DNA from: Candidatus Altiarchaeota archaeon
GTDB taxonomy: Archaea; Altiarchaeota; Altiarchaeia; IMC4; SCGC-AAA252-I15
Length of the DNA stretch: 64,000 bases
Direction: 5' to 3'
Assembly (NCBI GenBank): GCA_043800255.1
Contig: JAZDNF010000009.1
Location: 224,001 to 288,000, forward strand
In this document: piece after piece, positions 4,184 to 63,127 of the stretch
How positions within the stretch are numbered: the stretch's first letter is position 1
Layout: each line of letters opens with the position of its first letter
Translations under genes and position numbers: made by a program
Notes under the pieces: model-generated
Database searches by the model: none
The model's input: the letters and a program-made list of their open reading frames with translations, nothing else
What the model was told of the DNA's origin: nothing

Positions 4184-5593
4184 TCAGCCTTTGGTCACGC
4201 CCAGCGGCACGACCCTCGCAACCGCCTCAGATATGCCTGAAAGCTCGACGCTTTTCACGACCTCTGTGATGTCCTTATAGGCTTCGGGAACCTCTTCTGC
4301 TAGGACCTTCGGAGATGTCGCCCGTATTATCGTGCCCTTGGACTCCAGCATCCTCCTGATCTGGTCTCCTCTGAAGGAGTGCAGGGCCTTGGCTCTGGAC
4401 ATCACCCTGCCTGCACCGTGGCAGACGCTGCCAAATGTCTCCTTCATCGCCGTCTCGGTGCCGACCAGAACATATGATGCCCTTCCCATGTCGCCTGGCA
4501 CGATGACAGGCTGGCCCACGTCACGGTAGGACTTGGGTATCTCAGGCCTGCCGGCTGGGAAAGCCCGGGTCGCGCCCTTCCTGTGGACGCACACCTTTCC
4601 AAAACCATCATGCTCTTCGAATTTAGCGATATTGTGGCAGACATCGTATACGACGCTGACCTCGCAGCCCTTGAAAATTTTCTCCAGCGTCTCCCTAACC
4701 CACTGCGTTATAACCTGCCTGTTGGCGAATGCGTAATTGACGGCGCAGTACATTGCAGCCACATAATCCTTAGCCTCCTTGGACTTAAGGGGCGCGCAGG
4801 CGAGCTCGGCGTCAGGCAGCCGTATTCCATACTTTCTGGACGCCTCCAGCATGACCTTTATGTAATCGTCTGCCACCTGGTAACCGAGGCCTCTGCTCCC
4901 GCAGTGGACCATAAGCGTTATCTGACCCTCCGAGTCCAGACCGAACTTTTTTGCAACGTCTGGCTTGAGTATCTGGTCCACCCTCTGCACCTCGAGGAAA
5001 TGGTTCCCTGAGCCCAGGGTTCCGAGCTGGGGCTTGCCTCTCTGCCTCGCCCTCATGCTTACTTTGCTTATGTCAGCACCCTGGATGCAGCCGTTCTCCT
5101 CTATGTATTTGAGGTCTTCCTCGAGGCCGTGGCCTTCCTCCACAGCCCACTTCGCCCCGTAAGTGCACGCCCTCTCAAGGACCTTATCCTCCACCCTGAG
5201 CTTCGACTTCGAACCCAAACCGGAGGGGATGTTAGTGAACAGGCTCTCCACAAGCTCCTTCAGCCTGGGCTTGACGTCCTCATAGGTGAGGTTCGTCCTC
5301 AACAGCCTGACGCCGCAGTTGATGTCATAGCCGACTCCGCCGGGGCTTATTATCCCATCCTCAAGGCTGAACGCCGCCACCCCGCCGATTGGAAAACCGT
5401 AGCCGTAGTGGGCGTCGGGCATCGCCATGCTCGCCTCCAGTATGCCAGGCAATCGCCCGACGTTCGCAACCTGTTTGAACACGCCCTCCTCAATCTCGTT
5501 GAAAAGTTTTTCAGTGGCATAGACTCTGCCTGGGACGCTCATCCCCTCCTCCCTGAACTCCCACACGCCGGGCCTGACAGTTTTGGCTTTCAT
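4184..5593 (-). CDS. rtcB: RNA-splicing ligase RtcB
   Basis: MPDAHYGYGFPIGGV, DINCG, GNHFLE, HNIAK, HRKGATRAF, CHGAGR. Confidence 0.97.
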   Translation of the reverse strand: MKAKTVRPGVWEFREEGMSVPGRVYATEKLFNEIEEGVFKQVANVGRLPGILEASMAMPDAHYGYGFPIGGVAAFSLEDGIISPGGVGYDINCGVRLLRTNLTYEDVKPRLKELVESLFTNIPSGLGSKSKLRVEDKVLERACTYGAKWAVEEGHGLEEDLKYIEENGCIQGADISKVSMRARQRGKPQLGTLGSGNHFLEVQRVDQILKPDVAKKFGLDSEGQITLMVHCGSRGLGYQVADDYIKVMLEASRKYGIRLPDAELACAPLKSKEAKDYVAAMYCAVNYAFANRQVITQWVRETLEKIFKGCEVSVVYDVCHNIAKFEEHDGFGKVCVHRKGATRAFPAGRPEIPKSYRDVGQPVIVPGDMGRASYVLVGTETAMKETFGSVCHGAGRVMSRAKALHSFRGDQIRRMLESKGTIIRATSPKVLAEEVPEAYKDITEVVKSVELSGISEAVARVVPLGVTKG

Positions 5594-6521
5594 CTAGTCT
5601 TTCCGCCCATTCTGCCAGGCTTCTCCAGTATGCCTGGCATCGTGGCAGAGTCGGGCCTCCCGGCCTTTTCACCCCAGTCGATTATCTCCTTGGCCGCGGC
5701 TGCAAACCATGAGGAATATTGTATTCTCATTTTGTCGTCTATGAATGTCTCTATCCTGTTGTTCACATTTCCGAGCTGTTTCTCGGTCAGTTCACCGGGA
5801 TCAAAGCCATTTTTTTCATGTTGCGCATATATCTCAAAAACTCAGACGCATGCTCATGAAAATTTTTACCATCAAAACCCTCTCTCTTAAAATTCCAACG
5901 GTAGTATACTGTTTTCTCAAGCTTTTCCTGCGAAGATTCAACTTGCATGTAGCTTTCTGGCATTCTCATTTCGTCGATTTTACAGGGCATTCCAAGCGCC
6001 TGCCTATCAGCCAGCATATGGACGACCTCTCCAGGCCTGTACAGCGGATTATTTCCTTGGGCATACTTCTCGTTTGTTGATATCAGAATCCGCATTCTAG
6101 TCTCCCTCTCCAACTTATCTCTTACAGACTCCGTTCCTCCGCCCAGATCCCTGTCTCTCGGTACCTGTTTGGCTAACAGGAGCTGGATATCGCCTCCAGC
6201 TTCTTTGAATTCAGACAACACTTTGAGTGCGCCAACGTATGCACGCCCTTTCATCAGCTCTTCCAGTGCTTTTTCTACCAGCTCCCTATCGCCTTCTTCT
6301 ATTCGTGGATTCATGCCAAGAACTTTCATGCTCAAAAGAGTTGGCACAAAGAAGCCGGATACGACTGCAATAGGCTCAATATGCCCTGTCACATTCCCCC
6401 GGGATTTATCATTAGCATCGACCAACCAGCTCTCTCTGTCGCGCAGCGTTTTCAGATTCCTCTCGAATCTCTGCCGCTCGGTCTCCTTTGGGACTGGCTT
6501 CCGTTCTTTCTCGATGTTCAT
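5590..6521 (-). CDS. Orphan protein, probably interrupted by a frameshift at an A7 run (annotated ORF 5787-6521; -1 frame continues to 5590)
   Basis: 244-aa ORF; the -1 frame after ATGAAAAAAATGG stays open for 73 codons and ends in a TGA overlapping the rtcB ATG. Confidence 0.55.
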
Positions 6522-6560
6522 CTCAGGTATATATTCTTTCCATGCCGTGATTATTATATC

Positions 6561-7298
6561 ATGGCAAGGGACGCGTTAAAGGTGAGGCCCAGAGCAGCCG
6601 CCCAGGTTAAGGAGGATATGAACCCAGGAGCCAGGCTGAGCAGCATAGCGCCGCTCAAAGTCGGCGAAATCCCCAGGATAGAGGAGGACAGGAGGATGAC
6701 GCTGCTGCATGAGGCAGCTCTCCTGGAGAACCAGCTGAGGGATGAACTGGATAGGACGGGGATGAGACCTGATGAGAAGATAAAACTGCTGGAGGGGATG
6801 ACAGAGCTCACCCTCAGGAAAGCGGGAGTAGACCTCAAACAGGGCCAGCCTAACGACGAGAAGACCATCAGCCAGATAAGGGAGGACGTCTTCCAGAACG
6901 CTGCTGAAGTCTACAGGTCAGCCGATGAACTGTACAGTCCAGTGCTTGAGCGCATCAGGGAGATGGATGAGCTAACCGCAGAAAACATTTCCAGGATATT
7001 ATACACTGAACGCCTGAGAAGGCATGAGATGATCGAGGAAAAGAAGGCTGATGATAAGGCAGGCGGCGAAAGAATCAGGGAGGCAAGAGACGACACCATA
7101 GCTGATGAGATGATAGACTCAACCTTGAACATAGTCTCAGAAGGCCTTGATGGATTGAATCCTGAAGCGAGGGATTTCGCAAGAAGGGAAACGAATAAGA
7201 GGGTGAAGGAGTCACGGCAGAAGGGTGACAGGGTAACGCCTGAGACCATCTACGGCCTCTGGAGAACGATAGCAGCTGAGGCGAAAAAGGCTGCCTGA
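6561..7298 (+). CDS. Hypothetical helical, charged protein
   Basis: Likely start MARDALKV at 6561, because the longer ORF overlaps the divergent gene; 5 bp gap to the next gene. Confidence 0.6.
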   Translation: MARDALKVRPRAAAQVKEDMNPGARLSSIAPLKVGEIPRIEEDRRMTLLHEAALLENQLRDELDRTGMRPDEKIKLLEGMTELTLRKAGVDLKQGQPNDEKTISQIREDVFQNAAEVYRSADELYSPVLERIREMDELTAENISRILYTERLRRHEMIEEKKADDKAGGERIREARDDTIADEMIDSTLNIVSEGLDGLNPEARDFARRETNKRVKESRQKGDRVTPETIYGLWRTIAAEAKKAA

Positions 7299-7303
7299 AC
7301 GAG

Positions 7304-8776
7304 ATGAACATACTGAAGAGAGCGCCCAAGGCTGACGTTGAACCGCTGGAAGACGTCAAAGCCCCGAACGGCCTCAGATTGCCCGAGCTTCTGCGCAGAA
7401 GGCTGAAAGAGCTTGAAGACGAACCTGGAGAGGGGGACACGCTCCTCGATATCGTATCACAGTCCAAAAGGGAGGGTGAGATTAACAGCAGGCGCGACCT
7501 GCTGAAAAAAGAATTCAGAGGCCTGGGCCTCAGCGAGAGAGAAGCATTCGACCTGTCGATAACATCGCTGAAAATCAGCCTGCTGATGGAGAGGCTAGGA
7601 TTAAGGCGTCTCGATTTCATGAAGCTGACAAAGGAGGAGCTCGACATTTTGGAGAAGAATCCGGGCCAGGGGGATAGACTGCTGAAAGACGCTCTGAAGT
7701 CCGATAGAAAAGCCGAAGTGTCAGGCAGGCGGGAGAGGATAGAACACAATCTCATGTCGCTGGGTTTCAGCCCCAGGGAAGCACCAACCCTGGCTGAGAG
7801 GAACGTCAAGATAAGCCTCATAATGGAAAAGAATCTGGGAGAACTGGAGAAGGCATCAGGCAGGGACGGGGAGGAGATGCTCGACAAGCTGCCGAAGAGC
7901 TCGGTTAATCGCATGGAGGAACGCAGGGACGGGATAAAGGCGTCACTGTCCCTTCTGGGATTTGACAGGCAGACCATCATGGACCTGTCGTTCACCACCA
8001 TGAAGACCGAACTGCTCACAGAGTACATGGAACTGAAACACGAGCAGAGGAGGAAGCTGCTGGGTTACGCCGCAACAGGAGCTGTCGCAGGCGTTGGGGC
8101 CCTCCTCTTTTCGAAGTATATGCGAGAGGAAGAATCAGAGCCTGCTAAACCGACTAAGATGGAAGCCAAGGAAACGTCTGAGCCAAAGGTCAAACCTTAC
8201 TGGGGCCAGACCAAGTACACTGAAGAGGAAGTTTGGAGCGGCTTCGAAAAAGAGCGGGAATTCATCGAAACATTCTGCAGGAAGAATCAAGTCAACCCGG
8301 TCTCGCTGATGAAATACGCTAAGGATTTTAAAGTTGACCCGCTCCTGGTGCTGGCGACTATGAGAACGGAATCGAACTTCAAACCTGATGCGATATCAAA
8401 GGCGGGGGCCAGGGGTATCATGCAGGTCATGGACGCTACAGCAAAGGAGTGGTGGACGAAACACGGCTACAATGTCGAAGAACTTGACCCGCACAATCAG
8501 GACCACTGCATGCGCATCGGCGCCGGAACACTGAGCTGGGCTCTCCAGGACATAAGATGGATAGAAGAGCTGCCTGACGAGCGCGAGAGACTGAGGTTTG
8601 CGCTTGCAGTGTACAACGCAGGCTATGGTAACGTCAGAGAGGCCGTCAATAATGCGGGAGGCAGAGTAGATTATGCTGCTGCACATAGGTACTTCCCAAA
8701 GCAGGAGACAAAAGACTACGTCCCAAAGGTGCTTGGATTCTACGACAGATACAGAAGAGAGGCTGGAATGGCTTAG
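7304..8776 (+). CDS. Membrane-anchored lytic transglycosylase (SLT family) with N-terminal helical repeats
   Basis: VDPLLVLATMRTESNF (catalytic Glu), GARGIMQVM, AVYNAG, ETKDYVPKV; TM segment after QRRKLLG. Confidence 0.88.
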   Translation: MNILKRAPKADVEPLEDVKAPNGLRLPELLRRRLKELEDEPGEGDTLLDIVSQSKREGEINSRRDLLKKEFRGLGLSEREAFDLSITSLKISLLMERLGLRRLDFMKLTKEELDILEKNPGQGDRLLKDALKSDRKAEVSGRRERIEHNLMSLGFSPREAPTLAERNVKISLIMEKNLGELEKASGRDGEEMLDKLPKSSVNRMEERRDGIKASLSLLGFDRQTIMDLSFTTMKTELLTEYMELKHEQRRKLLGYAATGAVAGVGALLFSKYMREEESEPAKPTKMEAKETSEPKVKPYWGQTKYTEEEVWSGFEKEREFIETFCRKNQVNPVSLMKYAKDFKVDPLLVLATMRTESNFKPDAISKAGARGIMQVMDATAKEWWTKHGYNVEELDPHNQDHCMRIGAGTLSWALQDIRWIEELPDERERLRFALAVYNAGYGNVREAVNNAGGRVDYAAAHRYFPKQETKDYVPKVLGFYDRYRREAGMA

Positions 8777-9357
8777 CGGACGTCCGCCCGCATGTTCTTC
8801 TCAAGCTTCTTCAGTTTCGCATTCCCTTTCTCGAACTTGCTGTTTGCGGTTTTCAGAAGAAACCGTAGATAGCCTTCAGGCGCCAGCATGGAACCGTCAA
8901 CCATAACAGGCGCCTGGATTTTCTCTGTGGAACATATCTCGACCATAAACCGCCCCTCCTTCAGGCTTTGAACCCCGACCCTCTTGAAACCAGATTGCTT
9001 CCCAATCTTTAGGAGCAGACGCGCGCCATCCAACGTCCTGCAGACAACGTGGATGACAGCAGGCTCGTATATGAACCATACAACGCCTTTCTCTGACTTC
9101 AGCGCGCTCCTGACTTCTCCAACTTTCACCTTCCTGTGCCACTTCCCCAGCAGCCTGTCCTTCTCCTTAGAGCCAGCATCCTCCAACAGGGTTATCCTGC
9201 CCGCACAGCTTGAGGTGGTATAGAAGTCGTCAAGCGCGTTCACGTAATCCAGGAGGGGAATCAGAGCCTTGTCCACGTCCCCCTCGTGGAGCGCTGCCTT
9301 GTACTCTGACAGCGCATGCTCCTTCTGCATGAGAAAGCTTCTGCTATTTTTATCCAC
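8773..9357 (-). CDS. taw3: tRNA wybutosine-pathway methyltransferase Taw3/Tyw3
   Basis: FYTTSSCAGRI, KWH, IHVVC, SGFK motifs. Confidence 0.9.
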   Translation of the reverse strand: MDKNSRSFLMQKEHALSEYKAALHEGDVDKALIPLLDYVNALDDFYTTSSCAGRITLLEDAGSKEKDRLLGKWHRKVKVGEVRSALKSEKGVVWFIYEPAVIHVVCRTLDGARLLLKIGKQSGFKRVGVQSLKEGRFMVEICSTEKIQAPVMVDGSMLAPEGYLRFLLKTANSKFEKGNAKLKKLEKNMRADVR

Positions 9358-9368
9358 GATATCATATT

Positions 9369-10247
9369 TTGTACATGGAGGGTAAAGAGTTCGAGCGGAA
9401 AGCGTCCGTAATAATAGTCCTCACCATAGTGGCTTTCGCAGTTGGCTACTATGTCATCAACCCGGACACGAGCTACAAGCATAATGAGAGGATTGCCGGC
9501 GTGAGCGTGAAATCTAACATCCCCCTGGAAGACCTCTCAGGATGGGATGACATCGGCCTCCTGAAATCCGACGACCTCGCCATACTGGCCTGCAACTTCG
9601 AGCTCTCGGCAGTCTCTGGAACGCCCGTCTCAAGGGAGTATATTGTAAACGTCGAGAAGGGCGAGCAGGGAGTCTACGTCGAGAACAGGGCAAACGCTTA
9701 CATCAGAGGCATGAACTCTTCAGAACTCCTAGACGCATGCCACGTGTTCGCATGCCTGATAAGCAACGTCTCATGCTCTGACAAATTCCTGGACATAGAC
9801 ACCATATTCTGGAACACGAACGCCATCAACGTAATAATAGACGGCAACATCAGCGGACCGGGCACGAGAGCATACGCTGAACTCCTGGGGCCGATAGCCT
9901 TCTACCAGGCCCAGCATGCTGACATCAACAGGGATGGGATATTCCAGAATGAGGAAATCCTAGAAAACGACGTCTTCATAATCGCGTACATAAGGGAGGG
10001 CGACGTCTGCGCGATACAGCCGATGACCAACGCAATCCAGAAGGTGAACGCATCAAACGAGACTGTCGACTGCGACCTCGTCAAACCCGCGATTGTCCTG
10101 GAGGAGTCGCCAGCGAACGAGATACGAATCATAGGAGACAATACAGTATACCTGTACGGCAATGCAGAGAGACTGCACGCTGAGGCGATAATAATCGGGG
10201 ACATAATAGCGCCAGCCTGGAACCTCAGATTCCACGGGGTAGAATAG
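9369..10247 (+). CDS. Secreted or membrane-anchored hypothetical protein with an EF-hand-like loop
   Basis: N-terminal TM segment; DINRDGIFQNEE loop; several Cys and N-x-S/T sequons. Confidence 0.6.
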   Translation: MYMEGKEFERKASVIIVLTIVAFAVGYYVINPDTSYKHNERIAGVSVKSNIPLEDLSGWDDIGLLKSDDLAILACNFELSAVSGTPVSREYIVNVEKGEQGVYVENRANAYIRGMNSSELLDACHVFACLISNVSCSDKFLDIDTIFWNTNAINVIIDGNISGPGTRAYAELLGPIAFYQAQHADINRDGIFQNEEILENDVFIIAYIREGDVCAIQPMTNAIQKVNASNETVDCDLVKPAIVLEESPANEIRIIGDNTVYLYGNAERLHAEAIIIGDIIAPAWNLRFHGVE

Positions 10248-61495: not shown

Positions 61496-63127
61496 GTGAT
61501 GACCGTCAAGACGAAGGGGATTGTCGTAGTGGGCAAAGAGCGCGTTGACGCCGCCCTCAAGGCCCAGGGAGACGAGCTTCCGGGAGTTATGAGCGACATC
61601 ATCAGAGGCAGGCGCAGGCGGAAGGATTCTGCAGCAGGCTCAATCACGACTGACATTCCAGCCCGCCTTTTTGAGATGACCGAATCAGGAGTCCTGAATG
61701 AGGTAACATGGGGGAGAAAAACAATCACAGGGCTTAATGTCGGGGAAAAGTTAGGCGAACCGTCGAAGAAAATTTATCCCATAGATTTGGGGGAGCGCAG
61801 GGGGGAGATAGAAGTCCAGACAACCGGACGCACCGGCACAGTAACGTTGTCAGGCCCTGAGGGAGAGGAGAAGTTCGAATTGGTAGAGGACATGCGTTCA
61901 ACGAGGGGCGACGAGCTCGAGGAGGATAACAAACGCCTTAGAGAAGACTTAAAGACTGCGGCCGAACTGAACGACCCGACTAAAAGCTTGGATGCGATGA
62001 ACAGGACCCTACTCGACGCAGTTAACAGACTTGTTGGATCTGAAGCATCGACTTTATTCCTTGTCGGAAGCGAGTTCCTCACGGCTGAGAAAAAAGAGTT
62101 GGAACGGTTCACGCTTGCTGACCGACAGATAAGGGCAGCGACCGTGGAGAGTGCCATCGTAAAATCGATCATAAGCGGGAGAACCGCCCGCGTTGACGAG
62201 GGTTCGATGACAGAGGAGGACAGAAAACTCCTTGGGAAAAAACCAAGCTCACTGTTTGTGATACCGATTGCCAAGGGAGCTGCGGACAAGAGGCAGGTTA
62301 TGGGAGCCCTGGTAGTCGAAGGGTCGAAAAAGGACCAGTTATCGTCGGCGGATATGTCATCCATAGAGTACCTCGCAAACCATGCCGCAAGCGAGGTGTT
62401 CTCCGAAAGACTCAACCAGGTGGACGCGATTACGAACCTCGTGCCAAGAGGGCTTTTCGACAGGATATATGAGTCTCTGATTGGAAGAGCCGTCACAGAG
62501 AGGGTTAACTTGACGGTGGGAGTCACTGACGTTGACCGTTTCAGCCAGGTCTCCAACAACATCGACCACGCCAGAGGTTCGGAGGTTATAAAGCAGATAG
62601 GCACAGTGATAAAATCTAACATTTCGAACGAGAGGCTGGCGGGAGCGTTCGGCGGAGACGAGATGAGGATACTTTTCAGGGAGTCGAAGGAGGAGAGCCT
62701 GAAACAAGCTGATAAGATTCGCAGTGCGATTGAAGCGCACAGCTTCTATTTCACGTTACATCCTGAGGAGAAAGACATTGTTTTGAAAAAAACATCAAGT
62801 CTAAAGTCCGATGAGGAGGTCATCAGGATGGAACATGAGGATGGGAAAGACGTGATAATAGTGCCTAAGGGGTCTGAAGTGTTGGAAAACGAGGATGGCA
62901 GTAGGATAATAAACCTCCCCCCGGGAACGTTTACGGTGAGTATTGGACTGGCAACATTGAGAGACGATGTTAATGAGCCCATCCAGGTCACACCGGGAAC
63001 CTTGACAGACACCAGGCGGAAACTGACAAACATCGCAGACAAACAACTGAAAGCCGCTAAGAAGGCCGGAAAAAACTGCGTAAAGGCGATAGGCAGCGGC
63101 GCGATTAGGGCGGGCGATAAAATCTGA
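61496..63127 (+). CDS. GAF plus GGDEF (diguanylate-cyclase-like) protein
   Basis: GAF features (STLFL, IPI, MGALVV), DAITNL, DVDRF, FGGDEM at 62651, TVSIGLA, ADKQLKAAKKAGKN. Confidence 0.85.
   Translation: MMTVKTKGIVVVGKERVDAALKAQGDELPGVMSDIIRGRRRRKDSAAGSITTDIPARLFEMTESGVLNEVTWGRKTITGLNVGEKLGEPSKKIYPIDLGERRGEIEVQTTGRTGTVTLSGPEGEEKFELVEDMRSTRGDELEEDNKRLREDLKTAAELNDPTKSLDAMNRTLLDAVNRLVGSEASTLFLVGSEFLTAEKKELERFTLADRQIRAATVESAIVKSIISGRTARVDEGSMTEEDRKLLGKKPSSLFVIPIAKGAADKRQVMGALVVEGSKKDQLSSADMSSIEYLANHAASEVFSERLNQVDAITNLVPRGLFDRIYESLIGRAVTERVNLTVGVTDVDRFSQVSNNIDHARGSEVIKQIGTVIKSNISNERLAGAFGGDEMRILFRESKEESLKQADKIRSAIEAHSFYFTLHPEEKDIVLKKTSSLKSDEEVIRMEHEDGKDVIIVPKGSEVLENEDGSRIINLPPGTFTVSIGLATLRDDVNEPIQVTPGTLTDTRRKLTNIADKQLKAAKKAGKNCVKAIGSGAIRAGDKI

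Follow-up and report, generated by a model that had tools for sequence, protein, structure and literature searches.

We describe a gene for a lytic transglycosylase (SLT) protein in an Altiarchaeota genome and propose, at somewhat better than even chances, that its product is a membrane-anchored, resident Altiarchaeal enzyme that cleaves bacterial peptidoglycan met at the cell envelope. The gene lies in a stretch of 64,000 nucleotides (the window) that covers 224-288 kb of the 358-kb contig JAZDNF010000009.1, and it stands roughly in the middle of that contig. The window belongs to a metagenome-assembled genome of 1.75 Mb, here called G000, from an uncultivated archaeon of groundwater type; its completeness is 93%, which limits every absence from G000 reported below, and its contamination 1.3%. 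The SLT gene (7304..8776, + strand), delimited from the list of open reading frames (ORFs), the Pfam SLT match and the frame of a related strain, encodes 490 amino acids arranged as a repeat domain, an anchor, a linker and the SLT domain.

The catalytic domain

The original prediction, made before any database search, had read the gene as an intact lytic transglycosylase with all SLT motifs, and this description was borne out. The catalytic domain of a Slt70-type, family-1 (GH23) lytic transglycosylase was placed at residues 336-485 (8309..8758, + strand) by Pfam, NCBIfam, PDB alignments and PHROG. Pfam SLT (PF01464) scored 69.3 bits on residues 337-454, above its cut-off of 21.3 (E = 2.7e-19). 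NCBIfam gave partial, domain-level matches only, to the murein transglycosylases Slt, MltC, MltF, MltD and EmtA, and all 17 matches in a PDB sequence search were murein enzymes, the best being LtgA (5mpq) and Slt70 (1qsa) at E ~1e-9. PHROG endolysin and tail-lysin families matched the SLT part alone, at E-values of 2e-24 and below.

Family-1 enzymes are defined by motifs that include G-L/I-M-Q (II), A/V-Y-N-x-G (III) and E-T-x-x-Y-V (IV). All four motifs aligned to the solved Slt70-type enzymes, and E356-S357 (TES), G371-Q374 (GIMQ), Y437-G440 (YNAG) and E468-V473 (ETKDYV) were in register with LtgA. In motif I, RTES of the SLT protein aligned to RQES of LtgA, which placed the codon of the catalytic Glu356 at 8369-8371 (+ strand), and motif III read VYNAG over residues 436-440. 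E356-S357 was invariant in the homologue alignment, and the catalytic motifs were unchanged across three homologues at a mere 43-47% identity. The catalytic apparatus looks intact, and the SLT protein is probably functional.

A HMMER search of 1.84 billion representative proteins returned 9,929 matches at E <=0.001, and the best-matching stretch lay in the SLT part in all 150 listed. Two close homologues were among the matches listed, P0007 (231 amino acids, 45% identity, E = 3e-49) and P0008 (333 amino acids, 47% identity, E = 7e-40), and the next match followed at E = 4e-19. P0008 comes from G010, a genome of a different genus in the same family. A pre-domain of about 35 residues directly ahead of the catalytic domain (residues 300-335, 8201..8308, + strand; ..KY.E.EVW.GFE..R..IE..C.KN.VNPV..) was conserved in P0007 and P0008 and common only to these homologues, which marks it as clade-specific. 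When its patterns were run against 185,579 species genomes, a collection from which the window's own genome was possibly left out, a single locus was found, in G010.

Residency of the gene in the chromosome

The SLT gene is a resident, chromosomal and ameliorated gene that is kept in frame in a related strain. It had been described as lying between rtcB and taw3. Both flanks were found: rtcB (4184..5593, - strand; Pfam RtcB, E = 1.2e-174) and taw3 (TYW3; 8773..9357, - strand; Pfam and NCBIfam), the latter convergent with the SLT gene, with 4 nucleotides of overlap. The description was incomplete in that two further ORFs, orfV (5787..6521, - strand) and orfU (6561..7298, + strand), share the gap. 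Thirteen taw3 neighbourhoods were fetched from the family, and the block RtcB-Taw3-orf9369-FEN1 was present in all 10 that held both rtcB and taw3; the other three were short contigs or had no rtcB within the stretch. The wider neighbours of the SLT gene are rtcB, taw3, FEN1, GPI and KaiC, and cofactor-biosynthesis genes also occur in the window. By its relative synonymous codon usage distance, the SLT gene ranked at the 30th percentile among 724 long ORFs and at the 35th among 260 of matched length, which is typical for the genome. Its GC content at third codon positions was 0.645, compared with a mean of 0.630 +/- 0.102, and the GC content of the locus was like that of its flanks.

Contigs of a related strain, with about 92-97% identity to the window, were available from four groundwater-metagenome runs of one study (X1 to X4); the comparison covers the best-supported differences, with 208 more beyond those listed, and some parts of the window had no contig cover in some runs. 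The orfU/SLT junction was bridged by contigs from three runs (X1 record 3, X3 record 17 and X4 record 27), as was the SLT/taw3 junction (X1 record 5, X2 record 14 and X4 record 29), which argues against a chimeric contig at this locus. The earlier judgement that contamination is unlikely was thus strengthened by the mid-contig site, the conserved synteny, the typical codon usage and the independent contigs over both junctions. Related-strain contigs covered the whole SLT ORF and kept its frame: a deletion of one base at 7518 and an insertion of one at 7521 cancel each other, and changes at 8137/8140 add three bases. Seven of the eight listed substitutions within the ORF were at third codon positions, six of these seven within 7357-7387 in the N-terminal region. 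The repeat module, judged from the related strain, is under purifying selection.

The SLT clade was found in 2 of the 21 family genomes. Between G000 and G010, identity was 41% for Taw3, 66% for RtcB and 47% for the SLT region, so that the SLT region is within the range of vertically inherited genes. The G010 copy lies elsewhere, on a contig of 2.6 kb with a primase-like neighbour; this copy's ORF is open at the 5′ end of the contig.

The N-terminal repeat domain

The earlier description of three LG(L/F)S.REA-like helical repeats was confirmed and extended, in that these motifs are embedded in three larger repeats of about 65-79 residues. Repeat 1 spans residues 37-105 (7412..7618), repeat 2 residues 116-184 (7649..7855) and repeat 3 residues 181-248 (7844..8047), all on the + strand. 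Repeat 2 aligned to repeat 1 with a z-score of 17.9, and repeat 3 aligned to repeats 1 and 2 with z-scores of 8.6 and 6.2; in pairwise local alignments none of 500 shuffles equalled the observed score for any pair. Given the alignment of the three repeats, AlphaFold2 predicted one repeat as a three-helix unit (predicted local distance difference test (pLDDT) 90.6, predicted template modelling score 0.75). The prediction for the full-length protein without an alignment had a pLDDT of 42.1 and is informative for secondary structure only.

Repeat 3 gave a sub-threshold match to Pfam PG_binding_2 (18.8 bits against a cut-off of 21.1), and repeats 1 and 2 gave none. A PDB profile search with the repeats found no peptidoglycan-binding domain, its best match being DBF4 at E = 0.25. 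With the repeat model, Foldseek returned nothing at E <=0.001 (best 1.3), and VIA-align returned generic helical pieces with a best Z of 6.3 and no peptidoglycan-binding domain among the 50 rows listed. A peptidoglycan-binding domain at E <=1e-6 was present in 0 of the 73 larger SLT relatives scanned, drawn from the 150 listed matches. The peptidoglycan-binding nature of the repeats is therefore an uncorroborated lead.

Searches for relatives of the N-terminal domain were likewise negative. A collection of 5.8 billion proteins yielded only the protein itself at near lengths and none among 1,165 candidates at shorter lengths, and the HMMER search had no alignment before residue 226 among the 150 listed of its 9,929 matches. 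The ESM Atlas gave no usable feature match, and its structure TM-scores were all below 0.3. No paralogue of the domain was found in G000 by tblastn. The N-terminal half had no TPR or other above-threshold Pfam match, and the repeats matched no DNA-binding, kinase or other signalling family. The module is thus confidently predicted as a three-helix fold without detectable relatives. Two sources close at hand were considered and rejected: descent of the repeats from the ORF family of the neighbouring gap (hhalign against eight gap ORFs, probability 0.5%, E = 0.12; 0.15% with a single sequence), and relatedness of the N-terminal half to orfU (BLASTP E = 4.7 or worse).

Anchor, linker and topology

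The only strongly hydrophobic stretch of the protein was residues 252-270 (8057..8113, + strand), a Gly/Ala-rich helix with the protein's highest Kyte-Doolittle window (19-residue mean of 1.63), predicted as a single membrane anchor; Gly, Ala, Ser or Thr account for 11 of its 19 residues. The internal QRRKLLG followed by a transmembrane segment that had been noted earlier was recovered as residues 248-254, immediately before this predicted helix. Within it, R249-R250-K251 (8048..8056, + strand) forms a twin-arginine-like basic flank, with a weak match to the Tat-target model TIGR02811 (E = 0.008). After the helix comes a charged, Lys/Glu/Pro-rich linker (residues 271-299, 8114..8200, + strand), defined by composition, in which the related strain has the net gain of three nucleotides at 8137/8140. 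The 250 residues of the N-terminal half contain 19% Lys plus Arg and 20% Asp plus Glu and have no leader. Both close homologues likewise have a hydrophobic segment before the linker and the SLT domain. It stands at the beginning of the sequence available for them or close to it, and both N-termini are uncertain because the G010 frame is cut by the contig edge and the P0007 segment is short.

TatC (PF00902) gave no match in G000 and was likewise not found in G010, while 14 of the family's 20 other genomes encode it. Export by the Tat route is unsupported: QRRKLLG is internal, behind 247 residues, and only a start of translation at Met242 would bring it to the N-terminus. Since TatC was found in neither G000 nor G010, the RRK is best read as a positive-inside flank or the relic of a leader. 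An N-in/C-out orientation would be the economical topology model for the SLT protein.

Peptidoglycan-related genes of the host

The original prediction's statement that archaea lack peptidoglycan agreed with the gene content of the host, as no SEDS or GT51 polymerase was found in G000. One Mur-ligase-fold match was present, to a family that also matches the controls Methanocaldococcus jannaschii and Haloferax volcanii. Because peptidoglycan polymerases were not found, the substrate of the enzyme is most likely foreign. Scavenging of bacterial walls, which had been suggested as a role, was not supported: AnmK, GH3/NagZ, Amidase_2 and Amidase_3, which would serve in muropeptide salvage and wall hydrolysis, were not found in G000. 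Nor did G000 contain PG_binding_1, LysM or a second SLT gene.

SLT proteins across the class

PF01464 was detected in 15 of the 61 class genomes, in 14 of them above the cut-off. The architectures were diverse. G049 encodes a protein of 1,296 amino acids with a signal peptide, Amidase_3, four PKD domains and SLT (L031:3367-7257), G004 a protein of 508 amino acids with Amidase_2 and SLT (L042:3697-5223), and G048 a combination of DUF6298, PKD and SLT. Relatives thus join SLT with peptidoglycan amidases, which makes peptidoglycan a likely real substrate in the class. An RRxFL-type leader with SLT occurred in G055, G056, G015 and G022, and small SLT forms exist too. The protein of G015, a distant relative (E = 9e-9 and 8e-5), has the Tat leader SRRQFL at its N-terminus, and its genome has TatC.

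In family f5, all six SLT proteins had a hydrophobic, signal-peptide-like N-terminus. Three of the family's proteins (G037a, G034 and G031) fuse SLT to a two-helix hairpin of the type IV secretion system (T4SS) pilin type (VirB2-like, PF18895) behind a signal peptide (L032:4007-6139, L034:2847-4175 and L035:3135-4409). The flanks fetched for these fusions showed no conjugation genes or conjugation ATPase; of the 11 ORFs next to them, 8 lacked a Pfam family, and the remainder were a nitroreductase and glycosyltransferases. As a separate observation, a 755-codon open frame for a cysteine-rich protein on another contig of G000, outside the window (C5:71977-74244), contains a two-helix hairpin that resembles the pilin-like part of these fusions (47% identity over 40 residues).

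A domain tree was built as a quick IQ-TREE run of 160 rows and 148 columns, poorly resolved and from an incomplete search; G015 and G004 were omitted for short Pfam matches and P0008 as a duplicate of G010. The Altiarchaeal label changed five times on it, at least three of these changes being forced by supported branches, indicating that the class holds several SLT lineages. The G000 sequence fell in an unresolved polytomy beside G010 and P0007.

The neighbouring ORFs and the rest of the window

The original prediction had also offered orfU as a possible partner of the SLT gene. This 245-residue charged orphan from the ORF list, with no Pfam, NCBIfam or PHROG match, ends 5 nucleotides before the SLT start, a spacing that makes co-transcription of the two genes probable. 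A dedicated partnership was not supported. The rtcB-taw3 gap measured 52-83 bp in three genomes, 684-1,068 bp in seven and 3,180 bp in G000 only, and positional equivalents of orfU filled it in 7 of the 10 relatives that have no SLT gene there (L019, L020 and L023-L027). These gap ORFs encode 200-346 residues, are highly charged and fast-evolving, mostly end in ..AA and lie on the strand opposite to rtcB and taw3; their identities were just 12-24%, and none had a family match. Because ORFs of this type occur without an SLT gene in relatives, orfU is not an SLT-specific partner.

On the other side of orfU, a segment of 928 bp (5589..6516) that carries orfV is strain-variable: it is absent from one related-strain contig, an X1 contig that joins 5588 to 6517, and present in another run. 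A 5-bp direct repeat, TTCAT, marks both ends of the segment, and its copies take in the start codons of orfV and rtcB. orfV encodes a 244-residue orphan with one hydrophobic helix and no PHROG match; GC content is 0.47 here and codon usage is atypical (88th percentile). Between the divergent orfU and orfV lies an AT-rich intergenic stretch (6526-6559) with TATATATT and ATTATTATAT, about 26-35 nucleotides upstream of the two starts, and the arrangement would resemble back-to-back archaeal TATA boxes for leaderless transcripts.

The orf9369 of the conserved block (9369-10247, 292 amino acids) had no Pfam, NCBIfam or PHROG match. It adjoined taw3 in all 13 family loci fetched, with 32-42% identity, and is a lineage-wide protein without an assigned function. 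The window further contains FTR (of the tetrahydromethanopterin-linked one-carbon pathway), an HdrD-like CCG-domain protein, archaeal-type GPI, NucS, FEN1, RtcB and Taw3. Near its end (61496-63127) an ORF of 543 amino acids has a GGDEF diguanylate cyclase domain (E = 3e-15), a domain uncommon in archaea.

Discussion

We propose that the charged, signal-less N-terminal half of 250 residues would stay in the cytoplasm, that the helix of residues 252-270 would anchor the protein in the membrane as a single pass, and that the charged linker of about 30 residues would keep the catalytic domain on the outer side of the cytoplasmic membrane. In that position Glu356 would act on bacterial peptidoglycan met by the cell, cutting its MurNAc-beta-1,4-GlcNAc bonds and leaving 1,6-anhydro-MurNAc ends. 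The likely purpose would be to weaken or grip the walls of neighbouring bacteria, in antagonism or contact, rather than to feed. The anchor was probably an N-terminal export leader at first and gained the repeat domain by a later fusion, and this domain may tether or regulate the enzyme from the cell interior.

Several observations weigh against this proposal. The original prediction called the enzyme surface-displayed. The SLT domain does lie C-terminal to the predicted anchor, but it may face an inter-membrane space: a double membrane has been described for Ca. Altiarchaeum hamiconexum, the best-studied member of the Altiarchaeales, together with an association with Thiothrix (Probst and Moissl-Eichinger 2015), and in a cell with two membranes an inner-membrane tether only some 30 residues long might never reach a bacterial wall. 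The charges that flank the anchor are not decisive, with four Lys/Arg on each side within 15 residues, and without a detected TatC the Tat route has no support. No recognised wall-binding module was found above threshold in the SLT protein, and the PG_binding_2 match, if real, would place the repeats outside the cell. Finally, no partner genes for antagonism or for uptake of products were found in G000.

The same double membrane favours an alternative in which an anchored SLT protein remodels an endogenous GlcNAc-type glycan of a double-membraned Altiarchaeote, with the repeats coupled to growth or division. The short tether would fit a confined compartment, and the gene is chromosomal, old and set amid housekeeping genes. 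In G000, though, no SEDS or GT51 polymerase and just one Mur-ligase-fold gene were found; so patchy a gene, with this clade in 2 of 21 family genomes and any SLT in 15 of 61 class genomes, would be odd for a core envelope role; and relatives' SLT proteins carry peptidoglycan amidase domains. We regard this alternative as unlikely. Its most specific form, Altiarchaeota inner-membrane SLT enzymes that act on the cell's own inter-membrane glycan while the repeats link them to the growth or division apparatus, seems to us quite improbable. If true, the SLT protein would be the archaeal equivalent of membrane-bound lytic transglycosylases in bacteria and would hint at a murein-like layer beyond Methanobacteria and Methanopyri. 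Slightly less probable than remodelling in general is a sensor or regulated lysin, whose outside SLT domain binds or cuts wall fragments while the repeat module relays a signal or receives one that frees the anchor. A soluble domain, an anchor and an outside domain are the typical layout of one-component transmembrane signalling; the repeat module is predicted to be well folded and is conserved by selection; and the small residues of the Gly/Ala-rich anchor recall the release of signal-arrest-release endolysins. Against this, the module matches no signalling family, and catalytic motifs that are all intact do not demand a non-enzymatic role.

We give the same low standing to the possibility that translation starts also or mainly at Met242, which would yield a product of 249 residues with a twin-arginine or Sec-type leader (MELKHEQRRKLLG and the hydrophobic region) and leave the upstream 241 codons as a fused or separately used frame. 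Met242 is indeed followed by RRK and then the hydrophobic region; P0007, and P0008 as annotated by NCBI, start at the hydrophobic segment; and the N-terminal leader of the distant relative in G015 goes with a TatC in that genome. But no stop codon separates the two parts, and the related strain keeps the upstream frame: seven substitutions are listed for 7357-7394, six of them at third positions, and the indels at 7518/7521 cancel. G000 has no detected TatC, and the open G010 ORF may be longer too. Far less probable is a leftover of a mobile element with no present host role, whether from a T4SS or conjugation apparatus, as a VirB1-like lysin, or from a phage, as an endolysin or tail lysin. 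The PHROG matches of the SLT part, the three pilin fusions of family f5 and the strain-variable orfV segment next door point that way, and they are countered by the housekeeping flanks in conserved synteny with no type IV secretion genes among the neighbours, by the lack of a PHROG match for orfU, orfV and orf9369, by the typical codon usage and the frame kept in the related strain, and by the flanks of the f5 fusions, which showed no conjugation genes. Another beta-1,4-GlcNAc polymer as the substrate, chitin or chito-oligosaccharides, is just as improbable. Some GH23 enzymes are chitinases. The fold alone cannot separate these substrates, a reservation that Strock et al. 2025 (PMC12352652) also express about LysM-containing proteins. 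Nonetheless, all 17 PDB matches, the nearest relatives with solved structures, are murein enzymes, the motifs are those of family-1 lytic transglycosylases, and no GH3 was found in G000.

If the anchored SLT protein is active on murein as we propose, targeting of bacterial walls by archaea would extend from DPANN episymbionts and haloarchaea to the Altiarchaeota, which are abundant subsurface carbon fixers, some of them enmeshed with filamentous bacteria. With SLT in a quarter of the class genomes searched, sometimes together with murein amidases, interacting with bacterial walls may be a trait that recurs in the class. The three-helix module, without relatives among billions of proteins, would be a tractable handle on how an extracytoplasmic lysin is positioned or controlled in an archaeon. 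Current views are not overturned; the gain is the lineage, the architecture and a candidate that is clean and testable. No report of these enzymes in Altiarchaeota was found in the literature, where passages of two papers that mention both Altiarchaeota and transglycosylases use the terms apart from each other, and the word peptidoglycan is absent from Bird et al. 2016.

Among characterized enzymes, Slt70 of E. coli and LtgA of Neisseria meningitidis align with the catalytic domain over about 145 residues. Both are soluble proteins of the periplasm, and their N-terminal part forms a large superhelical ring on the side of the active site. The SLT protein differs in having an unrelated three-repeat module that is predicted to lie across a membrane helix from the active site, in a host with no murein of its own found; it also has no N-terminal domain like that of the Slt70 subfamily (1A), in which Slt70-like relatives combine TPR with SLT. 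Similar in layout are small bacterial proteins such as P0014 (186 amino acids), with an N-terminal hydrophobic anchor directly before the SLT domain, and CoaE-anchor-SLT-SLT fusions such as P0009, which shows that one natural protein can join a cytoplasmic domain through an anchor to SLT domains on the outside. Identity to such proteins is just about 30-40%, and the cytoplasmic domain of the SLT protein would be an orphan repeat and not an enzyme.

Within archaea, large extracellular proteins with lytic transglycosylase domains have been described in Woese-, Pace- and other DPANN archaea (Castelle et al. 2021, PMC8204110; Vigneron et al. 2022, PMC9723730), and in these accounts the SLT/GH23 proteins are proposed to bind or degrade bacterial walls. 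Those proteins are as long as 3,000 residues, wholly extracellular and found in episymbiont-type hosts, whereas the SLT protein has 490 residues, is predicted to be bitopic and belongs to an Altiarchaeote with FTR. Strock et al. 2025 (PMC12352652) describe archaeal peptidoglycan hydrolases that kill a bacterium, including M23 enzymes of Halogranum salarium lethal to a member of the Bacillota, and report modular hydrolases in 175 of 3,706 archaeal genomes with a filter that required a wall-binding domain; Altiarchaeota are named neither in its main text nor in the 12 supplements that were searched. The SLT protein resembles those hydrolases in the predicted export of a murein-cleaving enzyme from a murein-less archaeon and differs in that it has no wall-binding domain above threshold. 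The surprise implied by the original prediction was thus overstated, since archaeal SLT proteins and further peptidoglycan hydrolases directed at bacteria are already published. Other SLT proteins of the class (those of G049, G004 and G015 and the f5 fusions) are also export-signalled; their architectures differ from that of the SLT protein, they occupy at least three separate places in the domain tree, and none has the three-repeat module. What is new here, compared with these systems, is the lineage, with SLT domains in 15 of 61 Altiarchaeota class genomes, and the architecture, with its orphan three-helix repeat domain.

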